From Parcubacteria group bacterium GW2011_GWC1_45_14 (GTDB taxonomy: Bacteria > Patescibacteriota > Minisyncoccia > Moranbacterales > GWC2-37-73): a stretch of DNA of 64,000 nt. The stretch is taken from contig LCKI01000001.1 of NCBI GenBank assembly GCA_001001345.1, positions 339 through 64,338 of the forward strand. Reading direction: 5' to 3'. Numbering within the stretch: position 1 is the stretch's first letter; each line of letters opens with the position of its first letter. Below the pieces are notes generated by a model that saw nothing but the letters and a program-made list of their open reading frames with translations, made no database searches and was not told where the DNA came from. Positions 4,412 to 51,982 of this stretch are shown here, in pieces. Made by a program: the position numbers and the translations under genes.

Positions 4412-7400
4412 CTAAGCAAGTTCCACGCTGCCATGCAGGACGATGGATTTCAACTCCTCGATGATTTCGTCCGTGTGTTCTATGGAGAACGGAGTCTGAA
4501 GCTTGGTTTCATTGTGATGGAGAACGACCTTGGTGTCACCGCTTTTGCAGTCCTTGAAAAATTTCCCTAGCCGATGGATGATTTCCGGCGTGGCGTTGTG
4601 GGGAAGTTTTATAAGAAGGCTTCCTGTGGGAGCTGTATGGTTTTGAGATGGCTGATCCGTCGAGGGTGCTGGCGGAGGAGTCTGGTCGTCATCGTTCTTG
4701 TTTTCCTGGTGATACGTTTTTTGTGTCAGCCTGATGCGCATGAATTCGTCGACTTCGTGGCGGTTAAGCTCGTTCGCTTCGTCGGCAATGAGTTTGAAGG
4801 ACCCGTCCTTGTCCGAGAGGCGTCCTTCGGCGATTATCATCCTTTCTTCCTCCCAGGCGCTTTGGGTCTTTTCCAATACCCTTGGAAAAACCAAAAGCTC
4901 AATCCTGCCCTTGGTGTCCTCGAGCGTGACGAAAAGCATGGTTTCATGGCGCTTGGTCAGAATTTTCTGGACTTTCTGGATGACGCCCCCGACCTTGATT
5001 CTTTGTCCGACCATTTCCTTGGAGAGGCTGGCAATCGGAGTAGCGGCTTCGTCTAGGAAATCTTGGAATTCGGCGACCGGGTGGTCTGTCACATAGAGTC
5101 CCAGGAGTTCTTTTTCCCATTTCAATCTTTCTTTTTTCGTGGAAGGTTCGCATTCCGTCATTTGTATAGTCGGCGACTCCAGGATTTCCGCGCCGAAAAG
5201 ACTCACCTGGTTTGAATCTTTATTTTTCTGGATATTTTTGGAAAAGCTTATGATATTCTCGATGTTCTCGATAATCTGTTTCCTTTCTCCAAGATCGTCG
5301 AGCGCGCCGACTTTCGCCAGGGCTTCAATGGATTTTTTGTTGAGGTCTTTGGTTTGCACGCGTTCGACAAGGTCGGCCAGCGATTTGAATTTGCCGTTCG
5401 CTTTCCTTTCTTTGACGATCTCTTCTGCGACGACATGGCCGACGTTTTTGATGGCGTTAAGTCCGAAGCGGATCCTGTTTTTGCCATCGTCTCCTAAAAT
5501 CACCGCGAAGTTTTCAAAACTTTCATTGACGTCCGGAGGGAGGACTTCGATTCCCATGTCGCGCGTTTCGTCCACTTCGATAGCGATGCGGTCGATGTTG
5601 TCCTGGTCGGAAGTGAGGAGCGCAGCCATGAAAGCTTCGGGGTAGTGCGCTTTTAGATATGCCGTCTGATAACCGATGAGGGCGTAGCAGGCCGCATGCG
5701 AACGGTTGAAACCGTAGCCGGCGAACGGTTCGATGAATGAGAATACTTTTTCGCCGATTTCCTTGCTGACTCCGTTTTTGACGCAACCTTCCACGAATTT
5801 TATTTTCTGTTCCTGAATGAGGTCGAGGATTTTCTTTCCCATGGCTTTTCGAAGCACGTCCGCTTCTCCCATGGAAAAACCGGCCAAGGCCCTGGCGATC
5901 TGCATGACCTGTTCCTGGTAGACCGCTACTCCATAGGTGTTTTTGAGGATCGGTTCAAGCTTGGGGTGGACATAGCTGACCTTCCTGGTGCCATGCTTTC
6001 CGGAAATGAAGTCCGGAATCCAATCCATCGGTCCGGGACGATAAAGAGCCACCATGGCGATGATGTCTTCGATGACGGTGGGCTTGAGAAGCTTGAGATA
6101 TCTTTTCATCCCCGAGCTTTCGAATTGGAACACGCCGGTCGTTTTGCCGTCCTGGAAAAGCTTGTAAGCAAGCTCATCGTCGACCGGAAGTTCGTCGATG
6201 TTTATTTCGACTCCTTTGGTTTTTTTGATGATGCGGATGGCGTTTTGGATGATGGTGAGGTTTTTGAGTCCCAAAAAGTCCATCTTGAGAAGGCCGATCT
6301 TTTCCACGTAACTAGTTTTAGTGGAAGATGAATATTGGGTCACCGTCCCTTCGCGCGCCCCGGTGATGTTCTGGATGGGAGTGTATTCTGTTACCGGTTC
6401 TTTCGTAATCACAACTCCGCAGGCATGCATACCGGCGTGGCGCGAAACTCCTTCGAGTCGCATGGCGTTGTTGATGAGTTTTTTTGCATCCTCTCCGGAT
6501 TCATAATGCGTTTTGAATTCAGGTACTTCCTCCAGGGCTTTTTTAATGGAGGTGAACATTGGGATCATCTTGGAGGTCTTGTCGCAAAAATCATAGGGAA
6601 GTCCAAGTGCTCTTCCTGTGTCGCGGATGGCGGCTCGCGCAGCCATCGTTCCAAAAGTTATGATTTGCGCCACATGGTCGTCGCCATATTTCTTCCTTAC
6701 GTATGCAAGGACGTCGTCGCGTCTGTCGTCGGCGAAATCCATATCGACGTCGGGCATGGACACTCTTTCCGGATTAAGGAATCTTTCGAAAAGAAGGTCG
6801 TATTGTATGGGATCCACGTTGGTGATTCCTACTAGGTAGGATACGAAACTTCCGGCCGCGCTTCCTCTGCCTGGACCCACGACGATTCCGTTTTCTTTAG
6901 CCCAATTGACGAAATCCTGGACGATCAAAAAGTATGAGGAGTAGCCGCATTTTTCAATAACGGAAAGTTCATAGTCCATCCTTTCTTCGTGCACATTGGT
7001 GTGCTGTCCTTTGTATCTTTTCTCAAGTCCTTCCTTGGTGAGATGGCGTAAGTATGTGACATCGGTGAAACCTTCCGGAACTTCAAAATGCGGGAGCTGG
7101 GTTTCGCCGAGCTTGAGGTGGAAATCGCAGAGCTCCACGACTTTCTGCGTGTTCTCCAGAACCTCGGGGTGGTCCGGGAAACTGGATAGGACTTCCTCAG
7201 GGGATCGGAGTGAAAGATCGAAGTCCATAAGATTCATTCTGTCTGTTTCCTGTACCTTTCTGTTGGTTTGCACGCAAAGAAGGATGTCTTGAGCGGTCGC
7301 ATCTTCTTTTTTGACGTAATGCACGTCGCAGGTCGCCACGACCGGAATGTTGAGTTCTTTGGAGAGTTTGAATATCCCGTCGTTGGCTATCTTTTGGTTT

Positions 7401-7954
7401 GGGAAGTTGGGATGACTCTGTACTTCCAAAAAGAAGGACCCTTCGTCGAAAATGTCCATGTATTCCAAAGCGAGCTCCTTGGCCTTGTCGTAGTTTCCCA
7501 TCACTATTTGGGCAGGGATCTCTCCTTCCGCGCAGGCCGAAAGGCCCACGAGTCCTTCGCCATATTGGCGCAGAATCTTCCTGTCGATTCTGGGTTTGTA
7601 ATAAAACCCTTCCAAATGCGCGATGGAAACCAATTTCATCAGGTTTTTGTAACCCTTTTCATTTTTCACCAGCAGGATGAGGTGGTATCTTTTCCTGTCT
7701 TCGGCGGTCGGATTCTTCGAATGCAGATCGTTCGGCGTCACATACATCTCGCAACCCAAAATCGGCTTGATTCCTTTTTCCTTGGCCGTGATGAAAAGGT
7801 CGATTGCTCCGTAAAGCACGCCGTGGTCTGTCAGCGCTATCGAATCCATCCCGAGTTCTTTGGCGCGGTCCATGAGGTCGGGAATTTTCCCGAGGCCGTC
7901 TAACAGCGAGTAATGACTATGTACGTGTAAGTGGGTATATTTGGGAGTATTCAT
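4412..7954 (-). CDS. dnaE: DNA polymerase III alpha subunit
   Basis: PHP domain HLHVHSHYSLLDG, 1180 aa, conserved polymerase core. Confidence 0.95.
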   Translation of the reverse strand: MNTPKYTHLHVHSHYSLLDGLGKIPDLMDRAKELGMDSIALTDHGVLYGAIDLFITAKEKGIKPILGCEMYVTPNDLHSKNPTAEDRKRYHLILLVKNEKGYKNLMKLVSIAHLEGFYYKPRIDRKILRQYGEGLVGLSACAEGEIPAQIVMGNYDKAKELALEYMDIFDEGSFFLEVQSHPNFPNQKIANDGIFKLSKELNIPVVATCDVHYVKKEDATAQDILLCVQTNRKVQETDRMNLMDFDLSLRSPEEVLSSFPDHPEVLENTQKVVELCDFHLKLGETQLPHFEVPEGFTDVTYLRHLTKEGLEKRYKGQHTNVHEERMDYELSVIEKCGYSSYFLIVQDFVNWAKENGIVVGPGRGSAAGSFVSYLVGITNVDPIQYDLLFERFLNPERVSMPDVDMDFADDRRDDVLAYVRKKYGDDHVAQIITFGTMAARAAIRDTGRALGLPYDFCDKTSKMIPMFTSIKKALEEVPEFKTHYESGEDAKKLINNAMRLEGVSRHAGMHACGVVITKEPVTEYTPIQNITGAREGTVTQYSSSTKTSYVEKIGLLKMDFLGLKNLTIIQNAIRIIKKTKGVEINIDELPVDDELAYKLFQDGKTTGVFQFESSGMKRYLKLLKPTVIEDIIAMVALYRPGPMDWIPDFISGKHGTRKVSYVHPKLEPILKNTYGVAVYQEQVMQIARALAGFSMGEADVLRKAMGKKILDLIQEQKIKFVEGCVKNGVSKEIGEKVFSFIEPFAGYGFNRSHAACYALIGYQTAYLKAHYPEAFMAALLTSDQDNIDRIAIEVDETRDMGIEVLPPDVNESFENFAVILGDDGKNRIRFGLNAIKNVGHVVAEEIVKERKANGKFKSLADLVERVQTKDLNKKSIEALAKVGALDDLGERKQIIENIENIISFSKNIQKNKDSNQVSLFGAEILESPTIQMTECEPSTKKERLKWEKELLGLYVTDHPVAEFQDFLDEAATPIASLSKEMVGQRIKVGGVIQKVQKILTKRHETMLFVTLEDTKGRIELLVFPRVLEKTQSAWEEERMIIAEGRLSDKDGSFKLIADEANELNRHEVDEFMRIRLTQKTYHQENKNDDDQTPPPAPSTDQPSQNHTAPTGSLLIKLPHNATPEIIHRLGKFFKDCKSGDTKVVLHHNETKLQTPFSIEHTDEIIEELKSIVLHGSVELA

Positions 7955-8336
7955 TGAGTTTGATAAATCGTTTTAGGTTTTTGGAAACATAAGTCATTGG
8001 CAGTAGGTCCGGTTCTTGGTCGTAGGCCTTAGGTTGGAAATCGGTTAAATGGAAAAAAGAAATGGGTTCGGGAAAATAGAAATTTGAAATCGGAAAATCC
8101 TTTTTCTATTCTCCTTTTTCTTGAACCATCTTCCATTTTCTAATAAACTTTTTTCAAAATCCAATGACTAACGACTTTTCCCACGGCTAATGACCAATGT
8201 TGCTTATGACAAACAAAAAACCTCTATCGAAAATAGGGCCTGTTAACAATAAAATATAAAAATATTTTCCATATAATTTCTAATCTCCATAGCCCGGATT
8301 GCTCCCTGGGTTTTGCAAGATGTTTTTACTACAAGA

Positions 8337-50765: not shown

Positions 50766-50862
50766 CCGCGTAAAATCATGAGCTTTGCGAGTGATTTAAG
50801 CGCCCCGTGATAATTTGCGAAAGCGAATTATTTTACGGGGATATACCATTAAAAATAAGCTC

Positions 50863-51156
50863 ATGATCACGCGGCACGGCCGTGAGGGATTCTACTATGT
50901 ATATGTCATAGAAAATGACCATGATTTGAGTTGGTATATTGGATTTACGATTAATTTTGGAAAAAGATTGCAGGAGCACAACTCCGGTAAATCACCGTAT
51001 ACTTCCAGGAAACAGGGAAAACGGAGGGTTATATATGCGGAGTGTTATCTTTCCAAAAAAGATGCGTTGTCAAGGGAGGAATTCTTGAAATCCGGTTCTG
51101 GTAGAAGATTTTTAAAGAACCAATTAAAGAACTACTTGCACGCGACGCCGTTGTAG
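50863..51156 (+). CDS. GIY-YIG nuclease domain protein (YhbQ/UPF0213-like), stop overlaps 5' end of tRNA-Thr(GGU)
   Basis: FYYVYVIEN...WYIGFTINFGKRLQEHNSG. Confidence 0.6.
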   Translation: MITRHGREGFYYVYVIENDHDLSWYIGFTINFGKRLQEHNSGKSPYTSRKQGKRRVIYAECYLSKKDALSREEFLKSGSGRRFLKNQLKNYLHATPL

Positions 51157-51415
51157 CTCAGTCGGTAGAGCGTATCCATGGTAAAATTTTGCCCACCGCA
51201 TGGGAAACCAAGCGGTGAATCCCGAATAACGGTTAAAGGCCTCGCATAAGGTTCAGACCGTGGCGTCAGCAAGGCGCCCGAACGACTGACAAGGGGAGCT
51301 GCGTCCGAAAGGATATGCTCAATATACAGTCTAATCCTCTACGATATATGTTTGTTGGAAAAATAGAGGTGTTAAATGAAGGATAAGGTCCGCGGTTCGA
51401 TCCCGCGCAACGGCT
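51147..51415 (+). tRNA. tRNA-Thr(GGU) interrupted after anticodon by ~196-nt group I intron
   Basis: 5' exon GCCGTTGTAGCTCAGTCGGTAGAGCGTATCCATGGT, 3' exon AAGGATAAGGTCCGCGGTTCGATCCCGCGCAACGGCT form a complete cloverleaf when joined. Confidence 0.6.
51183..51378 (+). ncRNA. Group I self-splicing intron (Azoarcus tRNA-Ile-like IC3 architecture)
   Basis: follows exon U, ends with G; CCGCATGGGAAACCAAGCGG (P3/P4-like), GGTTCAGACCG and ATATACAGTCTAA (P7 strands CAGAC/GTCTA). Confidence 0.55.
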
Positions 51416-51424
51416 CAGGGAAAA

Positions 51425-51457
51425 AGTAATCAGTAATCAGTAATCAGTAATCAGTAA
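51425..51457. repeat. 7-bp tandem repeat (gtaatca)x4.5 following tRNA-Thr(GGU)
   Basis: direct inspection. Confidence 0.7.
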
Positions 51458-51505
51458 GCGTTAAACAATAACGAATAACCGATAATTGATAATAAATTTA
51501 TTTTT

Positions 51506-51733: not shown

Positions 51734-51982
51734 ATGCATTACGTCTATCTTCTTAAATTGGAAAACACCAAAAAGAATTTTTATATTGGTTGTACTTCTG
51801 ATTTGAAGAGGCGTTTACGTGAGCATCAGTCTGGGAATACTCAAACGACAAAAGGAAAAAATCCCAAACTTATCTATTATGAAGCATTTTCCGATAAGGA
51901 TTTGGCTCAAAAAAGAGAAGAGGGATTGAAAACAAGCGGATCCGTTTATAATGCGCTGATAAGAAGGTTGGGATTAAGATAA
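51734..51982 (+). CDS. Second GIY-YIG nuclease domain protein, flanked by 20-nt direct repeats
   Basis: HYVYLLKLEN...FYIGCTSDLKRRLREHQSG. Confidence 0.6.
   Translation: MHYVYLLKLENTKKNFYIGCTSDLKRRLREHQSGNTQTTKGKNPKLIYYEAFSDKDLAQKREEGLKTSGSVYNALIRRLGLR

Follow-up and report, generated by a model that had tools for sequence, protein, structure and literature searches.

The number of tRNA intron types was raised from 4 to 21 by Williams (2020, bioRxiv 10.1101/2020.01.27.920355), whose seed alignment includes the IC3-type Thr.5Ug. Closest to the locus described here are the introns at position 36/37 of tRNA-Thr(GGU) that were reported from three complete Patescibacteria genomes (Nakagawa et al. 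2026, mSystems, PMC13011429, Table 1). The name "divergent group I introns" is used in that paper, which in the passage concerned credits it to Castelle et al. 2018. The Thr(GGU) introns were undetected by RF00028 and were found by the gpI_bact_tRNA model of tFind, ARAGORN often miscalled them as Arg(GCG) introns at 34/35, and they branched with the IA-type introns of Patescibacteria on a long branch (PMC13011429). In vitro splicing was shown in the same work for the Patescibacteria Asn and Asp 35/36 introns only.

We analysed a stretch of 64,000 nt of DNA, referred to hereafter as the window, in which positions 51147-51415 very probably constitute a functional tRNA-Thr(GGU) gene carrying a 196-nt, ORF-less group I intron between U36 and A37, of the divergent family of Patescibacteria. 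Likened by description, the introns of Nakagawa et al. share with the window intron the tRNA, the anticodon, the 36/37 site and a comparable length, and like it they are negative with RF00028 and positive with a bacterial tRNA-intron model. Nothing essential differs, and the window copy is one more member of the described Patescibacteria tRNA-Thr(GGU) divergent family. The original prediction knew of no published group I intron in tRNA-Thr(GGU); that statement is superseded by the 36/37 introns listed in PMC13011429 and by the Thr.5Ug entry of Williams (2020).

All parts of the split gene lie on the plus strand. The 5' exon, nucleotides 1-36 of the tRNA (GCCGTTGTAGCTCAGTCGGTAGAGCGTATCCATGGT), occupies 51147-51182 and ends with the anticodon bases G34, G35 and U36. 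The 3' exon, nucleotides 37-73 including the discriminator U (AAGGATAAGGTCCGCGGTTCGATCCCGCGCAACGGCT), occupies 51379-51415, and CCA is absent from its encoded end. The insert between them (51183-51378) starts directly after U36, and its last base is G51378, the omega-G. When introns were allowed, ARAGORN called the gene as tRNA-Thr(ggt) and placed its 196-nt intron at 36/37, and the joined exons gave a canonical cloverleaf with the acceptor GCCGTTG/CAACGGC, the anticodon stem TATCC/GGATA and the loop AUGGUAA. Assembly of a canonical tRNA-Thr(GGU) from these two pieces, as originally predicted, is therefore upheld by ARAGORN and by the spliced cloverleaf. Run with default settings on the window, ARAGORN found only tRNA-Thr(UGU), tRNA-Tyr and tRNA-Trp, and the Rfam tRNA model at its gathering score found the same three; the split tRNA-Thr(GGU) was missed by both.

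Uninterrupted alleles in relatives fixed the boundaries of the insert independently. A gene that lies 90 nt downstream encodes an L33 protein, which is identical on three public contigs. One of these (L001; GCA_003484185.1, DNCZ01000014.1), an assembly outside the three complete genomes of Nakagawa et al., equals the window across a 431-nt aligned stretch. In the other two (L002 and L003), the syntenic site, which precedes rpmG and tRNA-Trp, holds an uninterrupted tRNA-Thr(GGU) with 2 nt differences from the window exons, both at loop positions; these two contigs so represent the empty site. Since the 196 nt are absent from L002 and L003, they are an insertion or a deletion when compared with close relatives, whose intact gene shows that the intron was gained or lost recently in the window's lineage. 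The exon junction reads CCAUGGU/AAGGAUA. Because A's repeat at the junction, the boundary is ambiguous by up to 2 bases; among the possible boundaries, the one that leaves U before the insert and G at its end (U/...G/) alone satisfies the group I rule. The separation of about 196 nt and the flanking U and terminal G given in the original prediction agree with these alleles.

The minimum free energy (MFE) fold of the insert (-62.2 kcal/mol; z = -3.1 relative to shuffles) yielded P2 and P4-P9, whereas P1, P3 and the outer P7 pair A51282-U51332 were added by inspection; with these, the fold through P1-P9 that had been suggested as a check on the original prediction was recovered. P1 (51180-51193) pairs exon GGU and intron AA (51180-51184) with UU-GCC (51189-51193) around the loop AAUU, which places a U36.G51191 wobble at the 5' splice site with two G-C pairs flanking it. 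Among the matches listed from genomes (see below), GGU/GCC with the U.G wobble was present in 103 of 103 homologues, and intron nucleotide 1 paired with the base that precedes GCC in 102 of 103, as G.U (46), A-U (40), U-A (8) or G-C (8). The P1 extension thus crosses the splice site with four pair types in these listed homologues. P2 (51194-51217) is a hairpin closed by a GAAA tetraloop (51204-51207), and 9 of its 9 pairs covary. It includes CCGCATGGGAAACCAAGCGG, which had been taken for an Azoarcus-like P3/P4 module. The 5' strand of P3, CCC at 51221-51223, pairs with GGG at 51293-51295 and forms a pseudoknot with P7. P3 has 3 bp and was paired in 100% of the metagenome homologues among the matches listed, with a C to U change giving G.U in 8 of 58; because it is invariant in the 103 listed genome homologues, it shows no compensatory change there.

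The MFE fold places P4 (51229-51234/51256-51261) around P5 (51238-51242/51249-51253), together spanning 51229-51261, and the canonical model R2 (see below) aligns the same two P4 strands as P4. P5 covaries, and P4 is invariant within the Thr family among the matches listed. The segment GGTTCAGACCG, originally read as a P7 strand, belongs instead to the 3' strand of P5, J5/4 and the 3' strand of P4. The P6 hairpin of the MFE fold (51262-51278) covaries in both homologue alignments and in the wider family. P7 has as its 5' strand A-(C bulge)-GACUG (51282-51288), which R2 aligns to canonical P7 and which pairs with CAGUC-U (51327-51332). Its inner helix is GACUG 51284-51288 with CAGUC 51327-51331, and the outer pair adjoins the bulged C51283; G51284-C51331 beside this bulge is, by analogy, the predicted guanosine-binding site. 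J7/3 (ACAA, 51289-51292) leads into the 3' strand of P3 (51293-51295). P8 (51296-51320) is a hairpin, GAGC...GCUC, that contains an internal loop and is capped by a GAAA loop; it covaries in both alignments and, judged by the comparisons below, would be the receptor-like partner of L2. J8/7 (AAUAUA) and the 3' strand of P7 (CAGUCU) occupy 51321-51332. Among the matches listed, ATACAGTCT was invariant in 103 genomes; the three J8/7 positions that precede it varied and read AAG in most cases. The P9 hairpin (CCUCUA/UAGAGG, 51336-51369; 6 of 6 pairs covary) is followed by a 9-nt tail to the omega-G.

The core therefore has the topology P3-P4-P5-P6-P7-P3'-P8-P7'-P9 with a P3/P7 pseudoknot, and covariation supports it. 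The joining segments GAAUA-ACGGUU-AAA, CGA-ACGACUG-ACAA-GGG and AAUAUA-CAGUCU are similar to the classical P/Q/R/S elements of group I introns. In the R2 alignment, A-(C)-GACUG/CAGUC-U with J8/7 AAUAUA matches the canonical GUAGA-GACUA/AUAGUCC column by column, and the P7 strands, J6/7 and J7/3 were invariant or nearly so in the 103 genomes among the matches listed.

Homologues were collected in two scans. A metagenome scan that used the R and S elements as anchors gave at least 120 stretches with 123 matches. In 61 of these 123 matches listed, a tRNA-Thr(GGU) gene was interrupted behind U36 by a G-ending insert of 173-250 nt; the exon search required the terminal G of the insert plus a valid Thr(GGU) cloverleaf. 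In line with the literature, ARAGORN often shifted the boundaries of these homologues and called them Arg(gcg), His, Leu or Pro. The 61 listed matches supplied 58 distinct sequences for the first alignment (A2). A scan of GTDB species genomes, anchored on P4 alone with P7 and R/S left free, gave at least 120 matches, and 103 of the 120 matches listed were the same split tRNA-Thr(GGU) (alignment A3). Carriers among the matches listed were nearly all Patescibacteria MAGs, the others being the isolate Niastella populi, one Pedobacter MAG and MAGs labelled Gammaproteobacteria; the nearest introns listed, at 76-77% identity, came from Moranbacteria/Moraniibacteriota MAGs. The gene content of the window itself looks CPR-like. 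In all, more than 160 homologues from metagenomes and GTDB interrupt tRNA-Thr after GGU, end in G and have an intact exon cloverleaf.

The proposed structure was strongly represented in both alignments. In A2, 92.3% of cells were paired and the covariation value was 0.399, compared to 0.14 for shuffled controls (0 of 500 reached the observed value) and at most 0.094 for slid controls. The corresponding values for the 103 listed sequences of A3 were 93.2% and 0.431, compared to 0.14 (0 of 500) and at most 0.106. Compensatory changes were many in P2, P5, P6, P8 and P9. The P1 core, P3, P4, P7 and the R/S strings were invariant even where they had not been selected, the listed genome set having been picked on P4 only. 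In a wider-family alignment, which was fitted to the model and is biased towards the structure to that extent, P4 does covary (U-A 33 and A-U 22, among others) and the outer P7 pair alternates between A-U (41) and G-C (23). Judged from sequence conservation, intact cloverleaf exons together with an invariant core are presumably the product of purifying selection, not of decay.

The loop of P2 and the form of P8 changed together. Among the matches listed, 49 of 50 sequences with a GAAA L2 had a P8 whose internal loop is receptor-like (..GCU(A/U/G)(A/C)...UAUGC..), while other L2 loops, mostly GUAA or GCAA, were accompanied by a plain P8 helix in 53 of 53 and by the receptor-like form in 0 of 53; these counts are of raw sequences and ignore phylogeny. 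The pattern suggests that L2 GAAA and the P8 receptor may make a tertiary contact in the Thr intron.

Covariance models differed in their response to the insert. RF00028 (Intron_gpI) gave no match on the window at the gathering score, none at E <= 10 on the 451 nt at 51050-51500, and none at the gathering score on 20 related loci, yet it found its positive controls, the Twort orf142 introns (64-101 bits) and an intron of phage PH15 (96 bits). Since control introns were found and the literature reports this blind spot, the miss was not taken as refutation. A core model of the family (R1) had the insert, at 111.8 bits, as its sole match in the window. Against the canonical introns of Twort, RB3 and PH15, its best matches fell inside the introns and in register but were short of significance (E about 0.2). 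For a model built on canonical introns (R2), we used the published seed alignment of the Williams gpI_bact_tRNA model and took 17 canonical cores, P3 to P7', among them the Azoarcus Ile2.5Ug row, the classes Leu.3Ug, Arg.5Ug and fMet.2Ug, and Patescibacteria-type Tyr and Asn rows. These cores were realigned and the published structure was transferred; no member of the Thr(GGU) divergent family was included.

With filters off, the best match of R2 on both strands of the 64-kb window was 51217-51334, which spans the full model with P4, P6, P7 and P8 in the proposed register (12.9 bits, E about 0.014, a weak score under a rough calibration). On 18 relatives the intron was the top match in 18 of 18, 16 of them with E <= 0.014 and the best at 31 bits (E 4.5e-8); controls, including the Twort and PH15 introns, scored 31-58 bits. 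Group I membership is therefore supported by a canonical model, weakly for the window copy and clearly for the family. The original prediction had named the lack of a group I covariance hit as one half of what would count against it. Such a lack is what RF00028 gave, and the rebuilt bacterial tRNA-intron model overturned it; with the empty-site alleles and the covariation-supported topology, the R2 match sustains the claim of a tRNA-Thr(GGU) split after nucleotide 36 by a group I intron.

The Azoarcus pre-tRNA-Ile(CAU) intron (IC3) occupies the same 36/37 anticodon-loop site and is about 200 nt long; its P1 is short and contains a U.G wobble, its P2 carries a GAAA loop, and like the Thr intron it has neither P5abc nor P7.1/7.2. 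It also has an L2-P8 tetraloop-receptor arrangement, which the co-variation in the Thr intron matches. P7 corresponds in the two, with the canonical GACUA/UAGUC in Azoarcus and GACUG/CAGUC in the Thr intron. They differ in the sequences of P3, P4 and P6 (AAAUUCGGCG...CGCCGAGCC in the Thr intron, compared to GAAUAACGGUU...GACCGUGGC), and in the length of P3, which is 3 bp in the Thr intron, with ACAA as J7/3, and 6 in Azoarcus. An L9 GAAA/P5 receptor pair of the Azoarcus/IC3 kind was not evident in the Thr intron. The IC3-like traits are thus a compact core without P5abc, the P2 and the L2-P8 co-variation, while the P4-P6 sequences depart from the IC3 consensus.

The introns at 35/36 of tRNA-Asn, -Asp and -Tyr of Patescibacteria, classed IA and represented by the Williams rows Mba143.Tyr.4Ug and Pgr210.Thr.2Ug, come from the same host phylum. 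Of the seed rows, Tyr.4Ug and "Thr.2Ug" (= Asn) are closest to the Thr intron in the P4 region, which is nearly identical (GAUAACGGUGAA...ACCGUGG in these rows, GAAUAACGGUUAA...GACCGUGG in the Thr intron). They differ in site (35/36, not 36/37), in a longer P3, in being positive with RF00028, and in the R element, which is GUAGAGACUA in the Asn/Asp/Tyr introns and GAACGACUGA in the Thr intron. The P7.1/P7.2 hallmark of subgroup IA is absent from the Thr intron, in which only the 4-nt J7/3 ACAA separates P7 from P3'. Rba53.Thr.5Ug of the Williams 2020 seed interrupts tRNA-Thr(GGU) at the same position (ggU/A) but has a typical IC3 core (AAAUUCGGGGAAA...CAAUCCCGAGCCAAG) and belongs to a separate intron lineage. 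The three introns of Twort orf142 are group I introns of a phage structural gene with P7.1/P7.2 and strong RF00028 matches.

From this anatomy and established group I chemistry, the intron most likely removes itself by standard self-splicing, started by a guanosine, and tRNA-Thr(GGU) is thereby restored. The pre-tRNA would be transcribed and its intron would fold into P1-P9, with exon G34-G35-U36 paired to intron G-C-C (51191-51193) so that the U36.G wobble lies at the cleavage site. A free guanosine would occupy the predicted P7 site (G51284-C51331, bulged C51283) and attack after U36, the terminal G51378 would next occupy the same site, and the 3'-OH of U36 would then attack the 3' splice site, joining U36 to A37 in the mature tRNA-Thr(GGU). 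Docking of the L2 GAAA tetraloop in the receptor-like P8 may stabilise the fold, and the exon halves, paired as the anticodon stem, probably do so too.

The gene lies in a cluster with the order tRNA-Thr(UGU), tRNA-Tyr, GIY-YIG ORF, tRNA-Thr(GGU), rpmG, a second GIY-YIG ORF and tRNA-Trp. The first GIY-YIG ORF overlaps the 5' end of tRNA-Thr(GGU) by 10 nt and is missing in the intronless relatives. We considered the flanking GIY-YIG ORFs as a free-standing homing endonuclease of the intron and rejected this as a general feature: among other Thr-intron loci with adequate flanks, a GIY-YIG ORF lay within 300 nt in 4 of 115, and these ORFs were therefore left out of the intron system.

Three other explanations were weighed. 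The element may be a genuine group I intron that is not autonomous, its minimal 3-bp P3 and short P1 requiring a protein cofactor of the host. P3 consists of CCC/GGG, the P1 core has 3 bp plus 2, the family has diverged so far that RF00028 does not detect it, and the in vitro splicing of PMC13011429 covers Asn and Asp introns and none of Thr. Against such dependence, the predicted tertiary contact between L2 and P8, together with the invariance of the core, points to a fold that needs no help, and no conserved protein gene accompanies the intron, the GIY-YIG ORF being as infrequent as stated above. A P1 of 3 bp does not keep the Azoarcus intron from self-splicing. Together with the in vitro self-splicing of the related Asn and Asp introns of Patescibacteria (PMC13011429), these points make a cofactor requirement improbable.

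That the locus is instead a dead tRNA pseudogene, with an intron relic or some other insertion, its role being filled by an intact tRNA-Thr(GGU) at another place in the genome, gains something from the intronless alleles of relatives and from a view limited to 64 kb of the genome. We regard it as very unlikely, given perfect cloverleaf exons here and in the more than 160 homologues, an intron core that is invariant over many Patescibacteria lineages, and the place of the gene within a conserved Thr-Tyr-Thr-rpmG-Trp cluster in which relatives keep Thr(GGU). A structured mobile element other than an intron (a MITE or IS remnant) that targets the anticodon loop is scarcely credible. The insert does lack a match to any Rfam family and BLAST similarity to annotated phage records, but it has neither terminal inverted repeats nor a target-site duplication, its U(-1) and omega-G boundaries are strict, it contains a P3/P7 pseudoknot and canonical R and S motifs, and the canonical group I model matches it in the correct register. 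A functional tRNA gene with a self-splicing intron remains our preferred reading.

Because default ARAGORN, the Rfam tRNA model and RF00028 all miss this tRNA, CPR genomes can look as if they have no tRNA-Thr(GGU), and completeness estimates are affected. The intron involves no new principle, as group I introns in tRNA anticodon loops, the Thr(GGU) type included, were already described. With a length of 196 nt, and of about 171 nt in its shortest homologues, the intron ranks among the smallest group I ribozymes, and a highly conserved core and rich natural covariation recommend it as a minimal ribozyme for structural studies. A cultured carrier of the Thr-family intron exists in Niastella populi CCTCC AB 208238, where the split gene lies on contig NZ_LWBP01000002.1.

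The non-tRNA matches of the metagenome scan, among the matches listed, included close relatives of the Thr intron that scored 60-95 bits with R1 and often occurred 2-4 to a contig. Structural genes of uncultivated phages contained 2-4 members of this RNA family per gene among the matches listed; Ga0208465_1000533 is one of the intron-bearing phage contigs. By eye, other host genes look like tail-fibre-like, capsid and tape-measure genes, and a small membrane protein gene was also interrupted repeatedly by family members.

It is conceivable that the Thr(GGU) intron is the tRNA branch of a large and coherent group I clade of very compact introns (about 180-200 nt, core CGAACGACUGACAAGGG ... AUACAGUC) that escapes RF00028 and is common to Patescibacteria tRNAs and to genes for structural proteins of uncultivated phages (head, tail-fibre-like, tape-measure), often with 2-4 copies per gene; we offer this tentatively and lean somewhat against it. 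RF00028 at the gathering score gave no match on the five phage-type loci examined, in contrast to the Twort introns, which it detects. A BLASTN search of 50,697 phage records with the intron as query yielded chance matches only (E = 8). If such a clade exists, introns traded by phages and CPR hosts, or drawn by both from one pool, would account for their patchy presence and absence in close relatives, and surveys based on RF00028 would systematically undercount it.

One phage contig (L005) allowed the interrupted gene to be reconstructed. The gene in question follows a portal gene and a probable scaffold gene and is interrupted by three introns (6280-6469, 6746-6935 and 7569-7752), each after U and each G-ending. 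Brute-force restoration of the reading frame was uninformative (37,240 solutions) and was replaced by splice sites guided by P1 and omega-G. Removal of the three introns at U/...G/ restored an ORF of 442 aa, which matches PHROG 9953, a major head protein, with E 1.1e-5, and the match is colinear across the first two junctions.

The group I intron family represented in the split tRNA-Thr(GGU) also occurs in protein-coding genes of phage. In the metagenome contig Ga0208465_1000533 (L005), where the gene order is portal, probable scaffold and then head-protein gene, the head-protein gene (6187-8079) is split by three introns of the same family, which are 190, 190 and 184 nt long. Excision of the three introns at U|...G| regains an ORF of 442 aa, and the restored ORF matches PHROG 9953, a major head protein, in an alignment that spans the first two junctions. 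Many metagenome contigs (L045, L052, L061, L087, L092, L093, L106, L107 and L119) carry 2-4 copies of the intron family each, with scores of 23-95 bits against R1, the covariance model of the Thr-intron family core. By eye, the genes that host these multiple copies resemble those for tail-fibre, capsid and tape-measure proteins, and a gene for a small membrane protein (...LLPTVAQQVGTAQADGNVTG...) is also split repeatedly in metagenome contigs. Because the five family members tested (L005, L012, L028, L041 and L060) gave no match to the Rfam model RF00028 at the gathering score, this intron clade may be undercounted by surveys.

A second RNA family, the '57-nt class' (L006, L008, L011, L014, L036, L047, L053, L070, L096 and L099), shares the core strings GACUGACAAGG...AUAUACAGUC with the Thr-intron family but differs from it in the P3-P6 region (GAAAGCAGGG...CCCUCAAC). 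R1 gave these loci only 21-25 bits, and RF00028 had no match in the six that were tested.

Carriers of the tRNA-Thr(GGU) intron were also found outside Patescibacteria. The cultured Bacteroidota isolate Niastella populi CCTCC AB 208238 has a Thr(GGU) intron of 181 nt at position 36/37 (L173, NZ_LWBP01000002.1, 5226-5422) that scores 22 bits with R2, the model of canonical bacterial tRNA group I intron cores, and offers a tractable organism for splicing tests in vivo. The same intron is present in a Pedobacter MAG and in MAGs labelled Gammaproteobacteria. When introns were allowed, ARAGORN placed the boundaries two bases off at L007, L009, L016, L020, L026 and other metagenome loci, and labelled many of these split genes Arg(gcg), His(gtg), Leu(gag) or Pro(ggg). 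Once the U(-1)/omega-G rule and the cloverleaf were enforced, all of the miscalled loci proved to be Thr(GGU) 36/37.

In the alignment of 103 genome homologues, and with no correction for phylogeny, an L2 loop of GAAA coincided with a receptor-like internal loop in P8 in 49 of 50 sequences, while other L2 loops (mostly GUAA and GCAA) accompanied a plain P8 helix in 53/53. This near-perfect co-variation of loop and helix types indicates a tertiary contact between L2 and P8. The window intron has GAAA in L2 and the P8 variant GCUGCG...UAUGC.

The split tRNA and rpmG are flanked, one per side, by two small plus-strand ORFs consisting of a GIY-YIG domain only (50815-51156 and 51734-51982; Pfam PF01541, E about 1e-13). 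The first overlaps the 5' end of the tRNA by 10 nt and is missing from the intronless relatives L002 and L003. A general link between GIY-YIG ORFs and the intron is not supported, since such an ORF lies within 300 nt in only 4 of the 115 other Thr-intron loci with adequate flanks, among the matches listed. Between the tRNA and rpmG, the heptamer AGTAATC is repeated perfectly in tandem, 4.7 times (51425-51457); in L002 and L003 this repeat is degenerate.
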